A stretch of DNA of 64,000 nt from Escherichia coli. GTDB taxonomy: Bacteria > Pseudomonadota > Gammaproteobacteria > Enterobacterales > Enterobacteriaceae. Positions 36,001-51,000 of the stretch are shown piece after piece (the stretch's first letter is position 1; every line of letters starts with the position of its first letter). The position numbers were made by a program. Location of the stretch: assembly GCF_017348835.2 (NCBI RefSeq), contig NZ_CP072317.1. One strand, 5' to 3'.

Positions 36001-39000
36001 CATATTGGCATATTCAAACTTTGGATTCCCGGAGACATGGGGACTTAGAGACTCAATACCCAAAATTTTCGCTACTGATGACTGTGTTTTTACAACACAT
36101 TCAAGAAGAAGTTTATTAAACTCTGTCTGATTAAACGCAGACTCTTTACGCTCCATCTGAGCCTCATATACACGAAGCCCCAGTTCAAGAAGCATTGAAG
36201 CTGTTCCCGAAACACTTATATCTTTATCTCTTGCCCCCTCCTGACGACGCTGTTCAACTATCGCATTTACTTTATCATAGACATCATTACTGATATACAA
36301 AATTACTCTGGCCATAAGATAAAACCTTTCATTATTAAGCAATGAACTTTTCACTATAAATATGCATATAGTGTTTACAAGTAAGAAAGACACTCCTAGC
36401 AGCGCCTCTAGGATCATCCTATAAAAAAATGCGATCCGGCGCTAGGGGCGTCCCTAATATATATCAATGTTTTTCATGAAAATTGTCAGTACTGATCCTA
36501 ATAAGAGTCGCTATAGGGTCGTAACAGGATCGCCAACGACTCTCTATTTAATAATTCAGAATTATTAAATATAAATAGCGTTTGTTAATTACATGATTTA
36601 AAACGTAAATCAGCAAAAACTTGTTTTTGCGTAGTGTGTGGTGCTTTTGGTGGTGAGAACCACCAACCTGTTGAGCCTTTTTGTGGAGTGGGTTAAATTA
36701 TTTACGGATAAAGTCACCAGAGGTGGAAAAATGAAAAAATGGATGTTAGCAATCTGCCTGATGTTTATAAATGGGATCTGCGAAGCCGCCGATTGCTTTG
36801 ATCTTGCAGGTCGGGATTACAAAATAGACCCGGATTTACTGAGAGCGATATCATGGAAAGAATCCCGTTACCGGGTTAATGCCATCGGTATTAATCCGGT
36901 AACGGGATATGGCAGCGGACTGATGCAGGTAGATTCCCAGCATTTTAACGAACTGGCCCGCTATGGAATTAAGCCGGAACATCTGACAACAGATCCCTGT
37001 ATGAACATTTATACCGGTGCTTATTATCTGGCAATAGCCTTTAAAAAATGGGGCGTCTCCTGGGAGGCCGTTGGTGCATACAATGCCGGATTCAGGAAGA
37101 CCGAACGCCAGAACCAGAGACGTCTTGCCTACGCATCAGAGGTTTACCGGATTTATACCTGGATAAAGAGCAGTAAAGGCATCCGGGTTCCGACCACGAA
37201 GAAATCACTTTCCCAAATTAACAGTGTGCAGAAAAATTAATATTGTATACATTGTCAAATACCGGTTATGCCGCGACAGCGGCATGGAAGGCCACACACA
37301 AAAATATCATATGAGTGATAATGCTGACTGGCCGAAGCCCCGCAAAGCGGGATCCCATCTTATATATATCCGGTAACTGCGCAGCCTCCTGCCAGACCAT
37401 TTTTCGCGGGCACAATATTTACAGACTACCGAAAAGCCAGTTGATGAAATTGAGGCATATCAGACGACACAGCAATGCCGCAGGATGATAATATAAGTAA
37501 AGCCCCGAAAAATTTTTCGGGGCTTTACTTATATTATCATGACTTCCACTCCCTGAACTGTTCGGCAATCATCCATAATGCTTTGTTGATTCGGATATCA
37601 CCGTCAATGCCTGTAATGGCTCTTGTTCTGGTATTTTTACCGGAGGCACTTCGCCCCGATAATCCACCTTTTATCATATTCTCCTGAACCCGCTGCCAGG
37701 TTGTCCAGAGATCGTTCTGTTTATCCTCCCAACGGCGGGGAGTAATTATTTGTTCTGGCGTCACTGGCGTTTTATTTTCATCTTCGTACCTGGCCATCAA
37801 TGCAGCTCTGCCAAATAAATGTTGTTCGTCACTGTTAAGATGTATCTCTTTCATTGTCTCCATATTTTCAGTGACTTTATCAAAGACACCGAGCACTTCA
37901 TACGCTCCCTCAATAACCTGCCCGACAATATCACCTTTATGTGGAACGCGGATTTCGCCAAAATTATTCCCACACACCAGGCCATTTGTGCAGACAAAAC
38001 GAAAAATTCCTGGGATCATCTGATAACTGGATGAACCATCATGTGAATTAAGCAGGATAATTTCAGGAACTTCTTTCCCGTTAATATGCCCTTCCCTGCG
38101 AAGACGTAACATATGTTTACTGTATTCGCGGCGTCCCAAATCACGAACCCGACTCTGACAGGCAAAGAATGGCTGGAAACCTTCATCACGTAACTTATTG
38201 ATGATATTGATGGTTGGGATATATGTATAACGCTCACTCCGGGATTCATGTTTATCACCAGAAAAGACAGATGGAACAAACTGCATTAATTCGTCATCCG
38301 TTAACGGGCGCTCACGGCGAATAGAATTATATCGACCAAAACGGGAAGCTAATCGCATAACAGTAACTCCTTTATGAAGGCATAAAATTAATAAAAGTTT
38401 TTTCGCTTAATATCATCCCCCCTCGGTTATCGTTAACAAAAAGACAACAATTCCGAGGGGAAGGACCATCAAATCAGGTCAGTTCGGGACTGACCAACCT
38501 GCCGAGTGAAAAGCAGTAACAGCGCGATCAACTCATCAGCGTTTTTTCTGACAAGAGGAGTATGATTCTCCAGGCTATCCAGTAAGTCATGCAGCTCATT
38601 ATTGACCTGGTGGAGCACCTTAAAGAGTGCACCAGAATCCCGGCAGCTCTGATATGCAAGATTTGCCTGAACAGCACGATTCTGCATGATCCCGATTTGT
38701 GCGATTGCGTCTTTCTGCTGATCGCCTGTTGGCTGATAAGTGGTGTTAAAAGAAAATGCGCTCATAATTCCTCCTGTATCTGATGTTTTCAGCCCCCATC
38801 ATCTGTTGAGTTTCGGGAGCCGCGGTTTTGACGTTTTGCGGGGACCTGCCTTTTGTTCCCTCCGGTATTCACCATCACCTGTTTGAGAACCTTCGCCGCA
38901 AGGGGCATCACTGCCACGGCCTGACGCACCTGTCCTGGGCAGAACGCAAAATTTTTTACCGGGTTTTGGGTAAAAAATTTTGTGGGCTGTTCATTTACCC

Positions 39001-48000: not shown

Positions 48001-51000
48001 GCAAGCCAGGGGTTTTCACGCATCGGACCGTAGCGGCAGCCCGAAACCGCGCCAGCGGGTTCGGCGGAGACTGGCAGGTGCGCCAGCAGCTGCCTGTCGG
48101 AGTCGGGCCTGACGACCGGATGCCGCCAGGCAGCCGGGAGCCGAAGGTGCGCCCGGCAGACAGAACAACACTGCAGTAGTCAGAATCAGAGCAGTAGATA
48201 AAGGAACAACAACATCAGGAACAGTTCCATAACATAAGAAAGAAACACTCCTGAGTCAGACACATCACAGACGGGAAGGGTAACGGGCGACGCGCCAGCG
48301 TGGCCCGCTTCCCTTCCGGCAGGCGTCAGCCTGCCAGGGGTTTTCGCGCGGGCTGACAGGCGGCCTCCACCGCCTGCCCCTGTATCACCTGTTTATGCTG
48401 CCCTGAAGGATGTAGTGACCGCCGAGGAATACAGCCTGCTGATTCGCCACAAAATCGCAGATTTCATCAACAATCTGCGCAGTGGTGAGCGGTTTCTGCC
48501 CCATTTCACGACGCCGCGCATTAATCACGGCTTTGTAATTGCGCAGAATTTCGCGGGTTTCTGTGCTGATATTCATGACATGTGCTCCCCGTCCAGCGCC
48601 TGTAACACAACGTCCATTGCTTCGCGTTCTTCCCTGACGAATGCGTCACCGTCGCCCCCGTTCTCGCTCCCGACGGCATACAGGCGCTTCATTTCACTGC
48701 CTGCCAGCGCCATCACTTTTTCCAGCATCACCGCCGGAACTGTCACCTGACGGCTGGCGCGCTTTTCTTCCATCAGCTCACGAACAACGTCGTGAACAAT
48801 GCTGACATCCGCACCATGCGCAAAGGCATCGTCCAGTCGCTGCATGACGGTTTCCAGCTCATCGTCTGTCAGACTCCAGTCCTGGGCTATGTGACGCACA
48901 TCCCCACGGGTCAGCACCACGGCAAAAACGCATTCACTGTCCGGCACGTCTGTGTTCAGCACTTCGCGGATAATTTCTTTAACAGTACAGTACATGTTCT
49001 CGTCTCCTTTACAGGGGCGGCATTGCCGCCCCGTCCGTTAATCAGTCCAGTGCCGCGTAAATCGCGTTGCATTCGGGGTGAAATTCGATGTGACGCCACA
49101 ACTGCGCATCGCGCATCCGGTAAAGCTGGGTCAGTCCTGCATCCCCGCTGTCGTGGTACAGCCACAACTGGCGGTTAATCACAAGGGAAGTCAGAATGAT
49201 GCCTGCGGCATCAGCACTCACGGTACGGTCAAACCAGTTTGCACCGTTCACCATGTGGAAACGGTCGCCATCCGGCATCATGTAACCGCCACCGTCCGGC
49301 AGGCGGATGAAGTGCCAGAAGCCTCCCTGATATTCCGGCATCATTTTTTGCGCCAGCGCGTACACATACGCCTCGGCATACAGAAAATCGTTGCCAAACA
49401 GATACGGTAGAAAGGAGAGACGGTCGCACTCTTCAACGTTCAGAGTGACAGGTTTCGCATATTGCATGATGTTTTCCTCCGTTGTTCACATATTCCGCGA
49501 CACCGGGCGGTGCCGTGCCTCCATCGTAGCCGGGCGATAAGGCGGGGATGCACAGGGCGCAAGGGAAGCCGCAGCCTGACGCACACGGCTGGCGGGAGTT
49601 GGAGGGTGAGACCGCGAAATCTGAGCGGGTGAACGACCGGAAAATCACGGCAGACGGGAAGGAGGGACCGGGTGACCGCAGCGGCGAAGCGTACCCTTGC
49701 ATCCCTGCCAGCCCGGCTACGATGGAGGCACGGCACAGCCCGCACACGACGCTGAGGCCACATAACTGAAAACCCACAAGGCCATGCCCCGCATGGCCGG
49801 GTAAAGCGGAGCCGGCGGCGACTTCCTTTGTGCTCTGTCCGGGGACCGGCAGGAAAAAGGCGGGGATTTACCCCGCCAACGTCATCATTTCCGGATTTTT
49901 GCCAGGGCATCCGCCATGCTGCGGATTTCGGCCCGGGCTTCCCGGACCACCTCCCGCAGAACACCACGGTCAAACCAGCGGCGGGGCGGTTCATCCGGTA
50001 TACGCAGCACATCGCAGGCCAGCCCACTGGACAGGATATGCTCAATACAATCGCTGACCAGGTACATTTCCACCGACGAAAAACGTGCTCCCCGGTTCAC
50101 GATGGCATCGAGCACCACGGGCAGGTTTTCGTCATCTTCATCGAGCCAGCAGGGGTGATCGCTTTCCTTCACAACCAGACGAAAGCGGCGCGTCTGGCGA
50201 GTCAGCAACGTCTGACCGGTGGTGGTCAGCGCCGCCCGGATACGCCGCGCATCTTCTGCCACCCGGCAACTGACACTGCGTACCGCATCGCGCACCGCCG
50301 CAAGTACAGCCCTGATTTCGTCTTCGGTCAGCCATTCTCCGGCATACGGGAAAGACACCTGCGTTCCGTCTGCCGGAAGTACCGGCAGCGACTGCCACTG
50401 ACTGCCGGACAGTACCAGTTCCGCCCCGGTTCCGGTCAGTTTCTGAATGGCGGAGGCCAGGAGCGGCGGCAGTACGCCGCCGTGACGGTTGATAAGTAAC
50501 GTCGCCAGCCGGGGCGCATCCAGCAGAACATAAATGCTGATCCAGCCCGGATACTTCGGGTTACGCTGGTCAACATCCGTCTCTTCCGGCCAGCCCTGCG
50601 CCAGCAGCAGGTTGCGGGCGTGACGACAAATCAGTGCGTTCAGCGTGCTGTTTTCGTTCATGATTAAGCGTTCTCCCTGTATCGCCGCCCGCAGGGCAGG
50701 CGGCGATAACATCAGTCGTTTTCGTGTGTGTTGTTTTTCAGCAGGGTGCGGGCCTGATTAACCACCTCCTGACGGCGGGTGACGCATTCCGGGACGGCGA
50801 GGCCATGATCCCGGGCGGCCCATTCACGTTTCCACAATGCCTGTTCAGCGGTCTGAATCAGGGACGCCAGCAGTTCAGCAGGGACGGTCACCAGGCGGTT
50901 TTCGCTCTCGTTGCGGATAATCTCCATCACCGCAGCGGAAGAAATACCGGACTCAATCCGCTGGTCTTCCGGGATGTCCTCCAGGCGTGCCAGGACGGTC

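Follow-up and report, generated by a model that had tools for sequence, protein, structure and literature searches.

Three long direct repeats lie in the leading region of an Escherichia coli plasmid, and the question they raise is whether they act as promoters on DNA that is still single-stranded when it reaches a conjugal recipient. They lie in a stretch of 64,000 nucleotides (nt) of contig NZ_CP072317.1 (assembly GCF_017348835.2), hereafter the window, and had been taken for elements of the Frpo/ssi type in an earlier, sequence-only reading. Comparison with the F and ColIb-P9 sequences gave direct homology, and the three repeats are very probably class 1 Frpo/ssi single-stranded-DNA promoters. 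The element has already been described and tested in F and IncI1 plasmids. The repeat was found in 3,475 of 5,426 complete E. coli genomes (about 64%), with a median of three per genome, and E. coli plasmids usually carry three copies. The copies in the window are the following.

38782–39366, + strand: copy A, probable class 1 Frpo/ssi element, at the position of Frpo1/ssiD in F, 2.1 kb from the nick.
44258–44842, + strand: copy B, the probable Frpo2 equivalent; hairpin at about 44286–44604; directly upstream of the ssb-to-psiA genes.
47563–48180, + strand: copy C; homologous part 47579–48016, hairpin 47592–47908, apex pair 47742/47751.

A repeat search covering positions 36000–51000 recovered this three-member family, and BLAST with the repeat as query gave exactly three matches within the window. 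Copies A and B were identical by BLAST at 585 of 585 bp (100%; 38782–39366 against 44258–44842), as first reported. Copy C was 89.4% identical to copy A over 442 bp (BLAST; 47579–48016 against 38797–39235). The similarity among the three copies is far beyond chance. From 48017 to about 48150 copy C did not align with A and B (30–50% identity), and it resembled them again only in a short CAGTAG-type tail at about 48170–48230; the diverged copy originally drawn at 47586–48180 is real, but its extent was slightly generous, since its homologous part covers only 47579–48016. The inner core (38906–39025, 44382–44501 and 47688–47807) was 98–100% identical among A, B and C, and the outer arms were 68–82% identical between A/B and C. 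No Rfam family covered the repeats themselves.

The strand that enters the recipient was assigned from the nick site at oriT.

36613–36699, + strand: oriT nick region, nicked between 36639 and 36640; exact match to published R100 oligonucleotides (PMC3074121).

The published R100 nick-region sequence, GCAAAAACTTGTTTTTGCGTAGTGTGT before the nick and GGTGCTTTTGG after it, occurs exactly on the + strand at 36613–36649. The whole interval 36613–36699 begins GCAAAAACTTGTTTTTGCGTAGTGTGT GGTGCTTTTGGTGGTGAGAACCACCAACC on this strand; GCAAAAACTTGTTTTTGCGTAGTGTGT is the R100 hairpin oligonucleotide, and the sequence starting with GGTGCTTTTGGTGGTGAGAACCACC is the F/R100 3′ oriT 60-mer, the two flanking nic (PMC3074121). 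The relaxase attachment point is the 5′ end of GGTGC. The presence of the R100 nick sequence on the + strand indicates that this is the transferred (T) strand and the template for the minus-sense genes, in agreement with the order of entry deduced earlier. By this match, the leading end of the T-strand runs along the + strand from 36640 towards higher coordinates, and the distances of copies A, B and C from the nick are 2.1, 7.6 and 10.9 kb, all within the leading region. Over this region the sequence agrees at 100% with R100 (NC_002134) and with many IncF plasmids of E. coli, Klebsiella and Salmonella, which identifies the window as part of an R100-type IncF plasmid. Gene annotation was taken from the identical plasmid pCTXM3_020032.

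To compare the repeats with known elements we used the Frpo/ssi sequences in supplementary file 4 of Samuel et al. 2024 (PMC11541004) and the Frpo2-acrIIA4 construct in file 11. Copy A was 88% identical to F ssiD (D90178). Copy B shared 97% identity with the F Frpo2 fragment that drives acrIIA4 in the functional Frpo2-acrIIA4 construct, a match that extends through the ribosome-binding site of ssb and the context of its ATG. This construct keeps only the inner hairpin and was not used as evidence of sufficiency; the outer 3′ arm may remain at its insertion site. On the F plasmid the repeat matched two loci, with 94% identity over 558 bp at Frpo2, upstream of ssb, and 90% over 589 bp at Frpo1, upstream of ygeA. 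Copy B shares both position and hairpin with F Frpo2 (ssp1b, before ssb-yfjA-yfjB-psiB-psiA). Copy A, like F Frpo1/ssiD (ssp1a, upstream of ygeA-ygeB), is the first Frpo after oriT and lies upstream of a DUF932 gene. F carries two class 1 copies, whereas the window plasmid carries three. Masai and Arai are said to have given ssiD the name Frpo in 1997.

The relationship between the F and window copies is not simply one to one. The inner core of F Frpo1 was only 52–75% identical to that of copy A (38906–39025), which instead has the same core as copy B. F Frpo2 (F locus at L002 10071–10625) combines B-like with C-like segments in a mosaic and is closer to window copy C than to B around 39026–39105 and 39185–39224 in copy A coordinates. 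F also lacks the 3.3-kb interval found between copies B and C. The uniform inner core, the mosaic F Frpo2 and the missing interval together indicate that the copies have probably undergone gene conversion and recombination with one another, and deletion of the DNA between them. Gene conversion and recombination among copies have also been reported for IncI plasmids (PMC3817090) and discussed for F by Couturier et al. (PMC9849209).

More distant relatives have the same organization. The IncI1 plasmids ColIb-P9/pESBL, like the window, have three dispersed direct copies in the leading region (ssi1-3/Frpo1-3), and the ColIb-P9 elements share the hairpin architecture with its A+T-rich tip, the TGGAC box and the flanking small hairpins. 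ColIb-P9 Frpo1-3 are only about 55% identical to the window copies, with the same block structure, and their downstream genes partly differ (ardA and others). The class 2/ssp2 ('Frpo3') and class 3/ssp3 single-stranded-DNA promoters have no sequence similarity to the three repeats. A count of 13,089 Frpo homologues in 6,006 elements has been published (Samuel et al., PMC11541004).

The hairpin potential pointed out in the sequence-only reading was then assessed by folding the + strand as single-stranded DNA.

38810–39128, + strand: copy A hairpin; outer pair 38810/39128, apex pair 38960/38969, loop GGGTTTTG, A+T-rich tip.

The + strand from 38782 to 39130 folded into one imperfect hairpin of about 320 nt with a free energy of −109.7 kcal/mol (z = −14.1). 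Shuffled versions of copy A averaged −57.0 ± 3.7 kcal/mol, and none of 100 folded as well. The pair of segments originally quoted, CAAAATTTTTTACC and GGTAAAAAATTTTG, is the tip of this far longer structure. The hairpin of copy C gave −97.4 kcal/mol (z = −9.3, DNA fold). The complementary (minus) strand of the copy A hairpin folded more weakly, at −101.2 kcal/mol (z = −10.3), so that the + strand is 8.5 kcal/mol more stable; the difference arises because about eight G·T pairs of the + strand become A·C.

Pairing was also supported by covariation in an alignment of ten class 1 elements, namely window copies A and C, F ssiD and Frpo2, one element from Serratia, two from an insect metagenome, and ColIb-P9 1–3. 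For the 52 pairs of the main hairpin, 93.9% of cells were paired, compared with 40–52% when partners were slid by one to three columns. Sixteen pairs had changed on both sides, against 1–5 in the slid controls, and the covariation score was matched in none of 500 column shuffles. Several G·T pairs are conserved, for example columns 128:256 in nine of the ten sequences, pairs that neither the other strand nor mRNA can form. As they would be A·C on the opposite strand, the hairpin appears to have been selected on the transferred strand and not in mRNA. The homology, strand, position, fold and covariation of the window repeats are thus established on the repeats themselves.

Beyond the main hairpin, the distal stretch 39130–39366 formed several short hairpins (z = −2.9). 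Three or four of these lie at 39130–39240, 3′ of the main hairpin, for example CATCCCGGC with GCCGGGATG and GCGACCG with CGGTCGC. Short distal hairpins of other sequence are also seen in the relatives from ColIb-P9, the insect metagenome and Salmonella, and look like conserved structure.

Within the main hairpin of copy A, two features suggest how a promoter might be arranged.

39001–39006, + strand: TGGACA, −35-like (five of six positions of TTGACA), in the 3′ arm of copy A, paired with CTGTCC at about 38929–38934.
39024–39037, + strand: mismatched internal loop, the likely −10/melting region; GGCtGTctATGC opposite GCATcACtGCC at about 38904–38914.

The equivalents of TGGACA are at 44477–44482 in copy B and 47783–47788 in copy C. 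The GGAC core was kept in all ten relatives, with variation only in the first and last bases (TGGACA/T/G, TAGACA), and helix 8, in which CTGTCC(n)GGG pairs with CCCTGGACA, had compensatory changes in one of nine pairs. In helix 6, the next outward from the TGGACA helix and extending up to the mismatched loop, 7 of 11 pairs had compensatory changes. The mismatched loop was the most variable part of the ten-sequence alignment, and both candidate −35 boxes described here point towards it. A nearly invariant TGGACA helix followed by a covarying helix and a mismatched loop is the pattern expected of a −35 box, a spacer of free sequence and a pre-opened −10 region, and we infer that TGGACA is the probable −35 box. 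The boxes would then lie on the 3′ arm, with the 5′ arm as template and transcription proceeding leftward into the genes; we regard this outward layout as somewhat more probable than its alternatives. The start site in copy A would be near position 38900. The outward layout is supported by a class 2 hairpin elsewhere in the window: there too the 3′ arm bears such boxes, TTGCAT-15 nt-TACGAT, with matching orientation.

Several observations weigh against this arrangement. The repeats contain no convincing −10 hexamer, the best candidates being TGTCTA and TCTATG. The −10-like hexamers lie 19–23 nt from TGGACA on the non-template arm and about 19–20 nt on the template arm, distances greater than the sigma-70 optimum. 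A strict scan for the sigma-70 consensus gave no match on either strand of 38700–39450. A second layout, TTGAGA-17 nt-CATCAC, is located on the 5′ arm (38883–38911) and reads towards the loop; it scores 5/6 and 3/6 in the window and 5/6 and 4/6 in F ssiD, and is present in seven of the ten sequences. The relaxed hexamer search across the ten relatives yielded these two competing layouts and left the −10 unsettled. One position inside the TTGAGA box changes in ColIb-P9 together with its partner (column 95:288), which argues against sequence-specific recognition there. Of the promoter-like geometry asked for by the sequence-only reading, the long hairpin and a clear −35-like box were found, but no convincing −10 hexamer. 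The strict scan also gave no match at the class 2 hairpin. Over the whole leading region it gave 11 matches compared with 8.9 in shuffled sequence, which is no excess, and no sigma-70-type promoter was found by it in the duplex DNA upstream of these genes, a result that favours promoters in the single strand.

Promoter activity, its dependence on the single-stranded state and priming are attributed to the window copies by analogy with the F and ColIb-P9/pESBL homologues. F transconjugants no longer express ygeA, ssb and yfjA early when Frpo1 or Frpo2 has been deleted, and the F homologues of the ssb-to-psiA genes need Frpo2 for early expression (Couturier et al., PMC9849209). Protection of F by an Frpo-driven anti-CRISPR gene requires that the gene be carried by the T-strand within the leading region (Samuel et al. 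2024, PMC11541004). Wen et al. (PMC12672017) used 5′ rapid amplification of cDNA ends to locate the transcription starts of ssi1-3 in pESBL, class 1 promoters similar to Frpo1-2, and defined classes 1 to 3.

On this model the + strand would enter the recipient 5′-first from the nick at 36640 during conjugation, and each element would fold on itself into the long imperfect hairpin before the complementary strand is made. The stem would mimic a duplex promoter, with TGGACA on the 3′ arm, a spacer helix of about 20 bp and the mismatched, pre-opened loop at the place of the −10. Host sigma-70 RNA polymerase would bind the stem and transcribe outward from the loop, towards oriT and hence leftward in the window, using as template first the 5′ arm, then the leading-region genes next to it. 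Three transcription units would be served: the 98-amino-acid (aa) open reading frame (ORF) and the DUF932 gene; ssb through psiB/psiA; and the 76-aa ORF with the DUF3560 and methyltransferase genes. The same transcripts could prime synthesis of the complementary strand, and formation of the duplex would remove the hairpin and so switch the promoters off.

A different emphasis is possible, though we consider it distinctly less probable: the hairpins could be chiefly RNA-polymerase-dependent ssi priming sites for complementary-strand synthesis, the mRNA being a by-product. ssiD was first isolated as a priming signal, and the Frpo RNA-DNA hybrid persists and is extended in vitro by DNA polymerase III (reviewed in PMC7690428). 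In vivo, loci downstream of ssp1a/ssp1b become duplex early and in a rifampicin-sensitive manner, this early strand conversion being transcription-dependent (Fraikin et al., bioRxiv 10.64898/2026.01.09.698686). However, each of the three copies directly precedes a ribosome-binding site and a correctly oriented gene, early protein production is lost when Frpo elements are deleted, and deletion of Frpo2 causes no drop in transfer frequency (PMC9849209). Priming and promoter roles are not mutually exclusive. It is very unlikely that the inverted repeat acts instead in the mRNA, as a hairpin of the 5′ untranslated region (UTR), a processing site or an operon insulator. The strong fold of the complementary strand is in keeping with such a role, but any long palindrome must fold in this way, and both the conserved G·T pairs, which turn into A·C on the mRNA-sense strand, and the greater stability of the + strand point to the DNA. 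The proposed start site would leave only the 5′ arm of the hairpin in the transcript. Experiments on the homologues also show dependence on the single-stranded DNA form (PMC9849209, PMC11541004, PMC12672017).

Two further explanations are less probable still. Long direct repeats with internal inverted symmetry might be an insertion sequence or a miniature inverted-repeat transposable element (MITE), and the complete identity of A and B, which shows recent duplication or gene conversion, might suggest functionless relics of a segmental duplication; this we consider extremely unlikely. No transposase gene was found under or beside the copies, and in the records listed no insertion-sequence annotation lay under the match, so the three copies do not correspond to a known insertion sequence, the outcome that the sequence-only reading had named as contrary to its proposal. 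In complete E. coli genomes, plasmids accounted for 10,616 occurrences of the repeat and chromosomes for 120; among the matches listed its neighbours, as in the window, were ssb or small hypothetical genes. The hairpin, moreover, has been held by compensatory changes over deep divergence. The insertion sequence or MITE was rejected on the almost exclusively plasmid distribution and the absence of transposase at the copies. Least probable of all, to the point of being negligible, is that the repeats code for proteins through the 78-aa and similar plus-strand ORFs, although some submitters annotate hypothetical proteins there (L004 2829–3065, 8305–8541 and 11599–11856). The 78-aa ORF has a TTG start, its stop is not conserved in copy C, and all real genes of the leading region are on the other strand. 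Substitutions in the three codon positions numbered 12/8/6 against copy C and 10/18/14 against F Frpo1, with no concentration in the third position; one indel column relative to copy A shifts the frame in both F copies; and there was no NCBIfam match. Coding ORFs within the repeats were rejected for the shifted frame, the lack of a third-position bias in substitutions and of a family match, and these ORFs had already been judged most likely non-coding before any such comparison.

Class 1 Frpo/ssi promoters thus remain the preferred identification of the three repeats. Through Frpo elements, conjugative plasmids express genes for SOS inhibition, single-strand binding and anti-restriction or anti-defence within minutes of entry; such early expression is central to the spread of resistance plasmids, and this role is established in the literature. 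The window is a routine instance in an R100-type IncF plasmid and adds no new principle. It is mildly useful in that copy C precedes an operon missing from F, and in that the pattern of covariation assists in locating the −35 box.

The genes following each copy, all on the minus strand, are positioned as the sequence-only reading described, each copy lying immediately upstream of a leading-region gene or operon.

37537–38765, − strand: genes after copy A; 98-aa ORF (38469–38765) and DUF932/orf273 gene (37537–38358).
40118–44239, − strand: genes after copy B; ssb (43712–44239), DUF905 gene, ParB-like 473-aa gene, psiB and psiA.
44834–47347, − strand: genes after copy C; 76-aa ORF (47117–47347), DUF3560 gene (453 aa, ydbA), class I SAM methyltransferase gene (187 aa, ydcA) and an 86-aa poly-leucine-tailed ORF.

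Copy A begins 17 nt and copy B 19 nt ahead of the start codon (ATG) that follows, that of the 98-aa ORF and of ssb respectively; a gap of about 215 nt separates copy C from the 76-aa ORF downstream. To the left of 36316 are traM and traJ on the minus strand, followed by an SLT gene on the + strand. Beyond this gene everything is on the minus strand, in the order DUF932, 98-aa ORF, hok, psiA, psiB, ParB-like, DUF905 and ssb, and past ssb the SAM methyltransferase, DUF3560, 76-aa ORF, DUF1380, antirestriction and DNA methylase genes. The product of the 98-aa ORF matched no NCBIfam family and had no detectable similarity to YgeA, whose gene is its positional counterpart in F; R100-type plasmids and F thus differ in the first gene that Frpo drives. 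The interval 44834–47347 is wholly missing from F, which lacks the 76-aa ORF, DUF3560 (ydbA) and SAM methyltransferase (ydcA) genes that follow copy C.

Tandem repeats of the CAGTAG type were found at the distal borders of the repeats (44834–45094, 39239–39457 and 48186–48263, minus strand), with a 12-nt period at 44839–44940. Their minus strand encodes leucine-rich tails of small ORFs, the 86-aa ORF ending in LLLMMLLFLLLLLLLLLLLLLLLLLLLFFFFLLP. These tails may be real membrane peptides, or may merely reflect repetitive DNA next to the hairpins.

The 215-nt gap between copy C and the 76-aa ORF contains a match to the Rfam family AS-pc01 (RF02875, 89.7 bits) on the + strand at 47342–47443. Upstream of it is a promoter-like site, TTTACA-17-AACAAT with an upstream TG (47307–47335), and it ends in a terminator-like hairpin (47417–47440) followed by a run of T. 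AS-pc01 runs antisense to the 76-aa ORF across its 5′ UTR and start codon, and only duplex DNA can serve for its transcription. Copy C and AS-pc01 might conceivably form a two-layer switch, an idea that we put forward as doubtful: the hairpin would drive the operon of the 76-aa ORF, DUF3560, SAM methyltransferase and poly-leucine ORF at entry, and the antisense small RNA would actively shut it off after duplex conversion. Because transcription of AS-pc01 needs the complementary strand, such silencing would follow conversion and go beyond passive loss of the hairpin.

Two other structures were found further into the leading region. The class 2 hairpin mentioned above lies at 49504–49742, upstream of an antirestriction gene (49042–49467, minus strand), and is unrelated to the repeats. 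Its 32-nt arms are 97% complementary and it folded as DNA to −84.5 kcal/mol (z = −6.2), with TTGCAT at 49697–49702 and TACGAT at 49718–49723 in the 3′ arm, 15 nt apart. It resembles the Frpo' 4 candidate of Samuel et al. (PMC11541004) and corresponds to the class 2/ssp2/'Frpo3' promoter, which is also a replication roadblock (bioRxiv 10.64898/2026.01.09.698686). Finally, a long inverted repeat at 52125–52349, with 30-nt arms that are 83% complementary and separated by 165 nt, is situated just upstream of the DNA methylase gene (51382–52065, minus strand), and could represent another class 2 or class 3 single-strand promoter.

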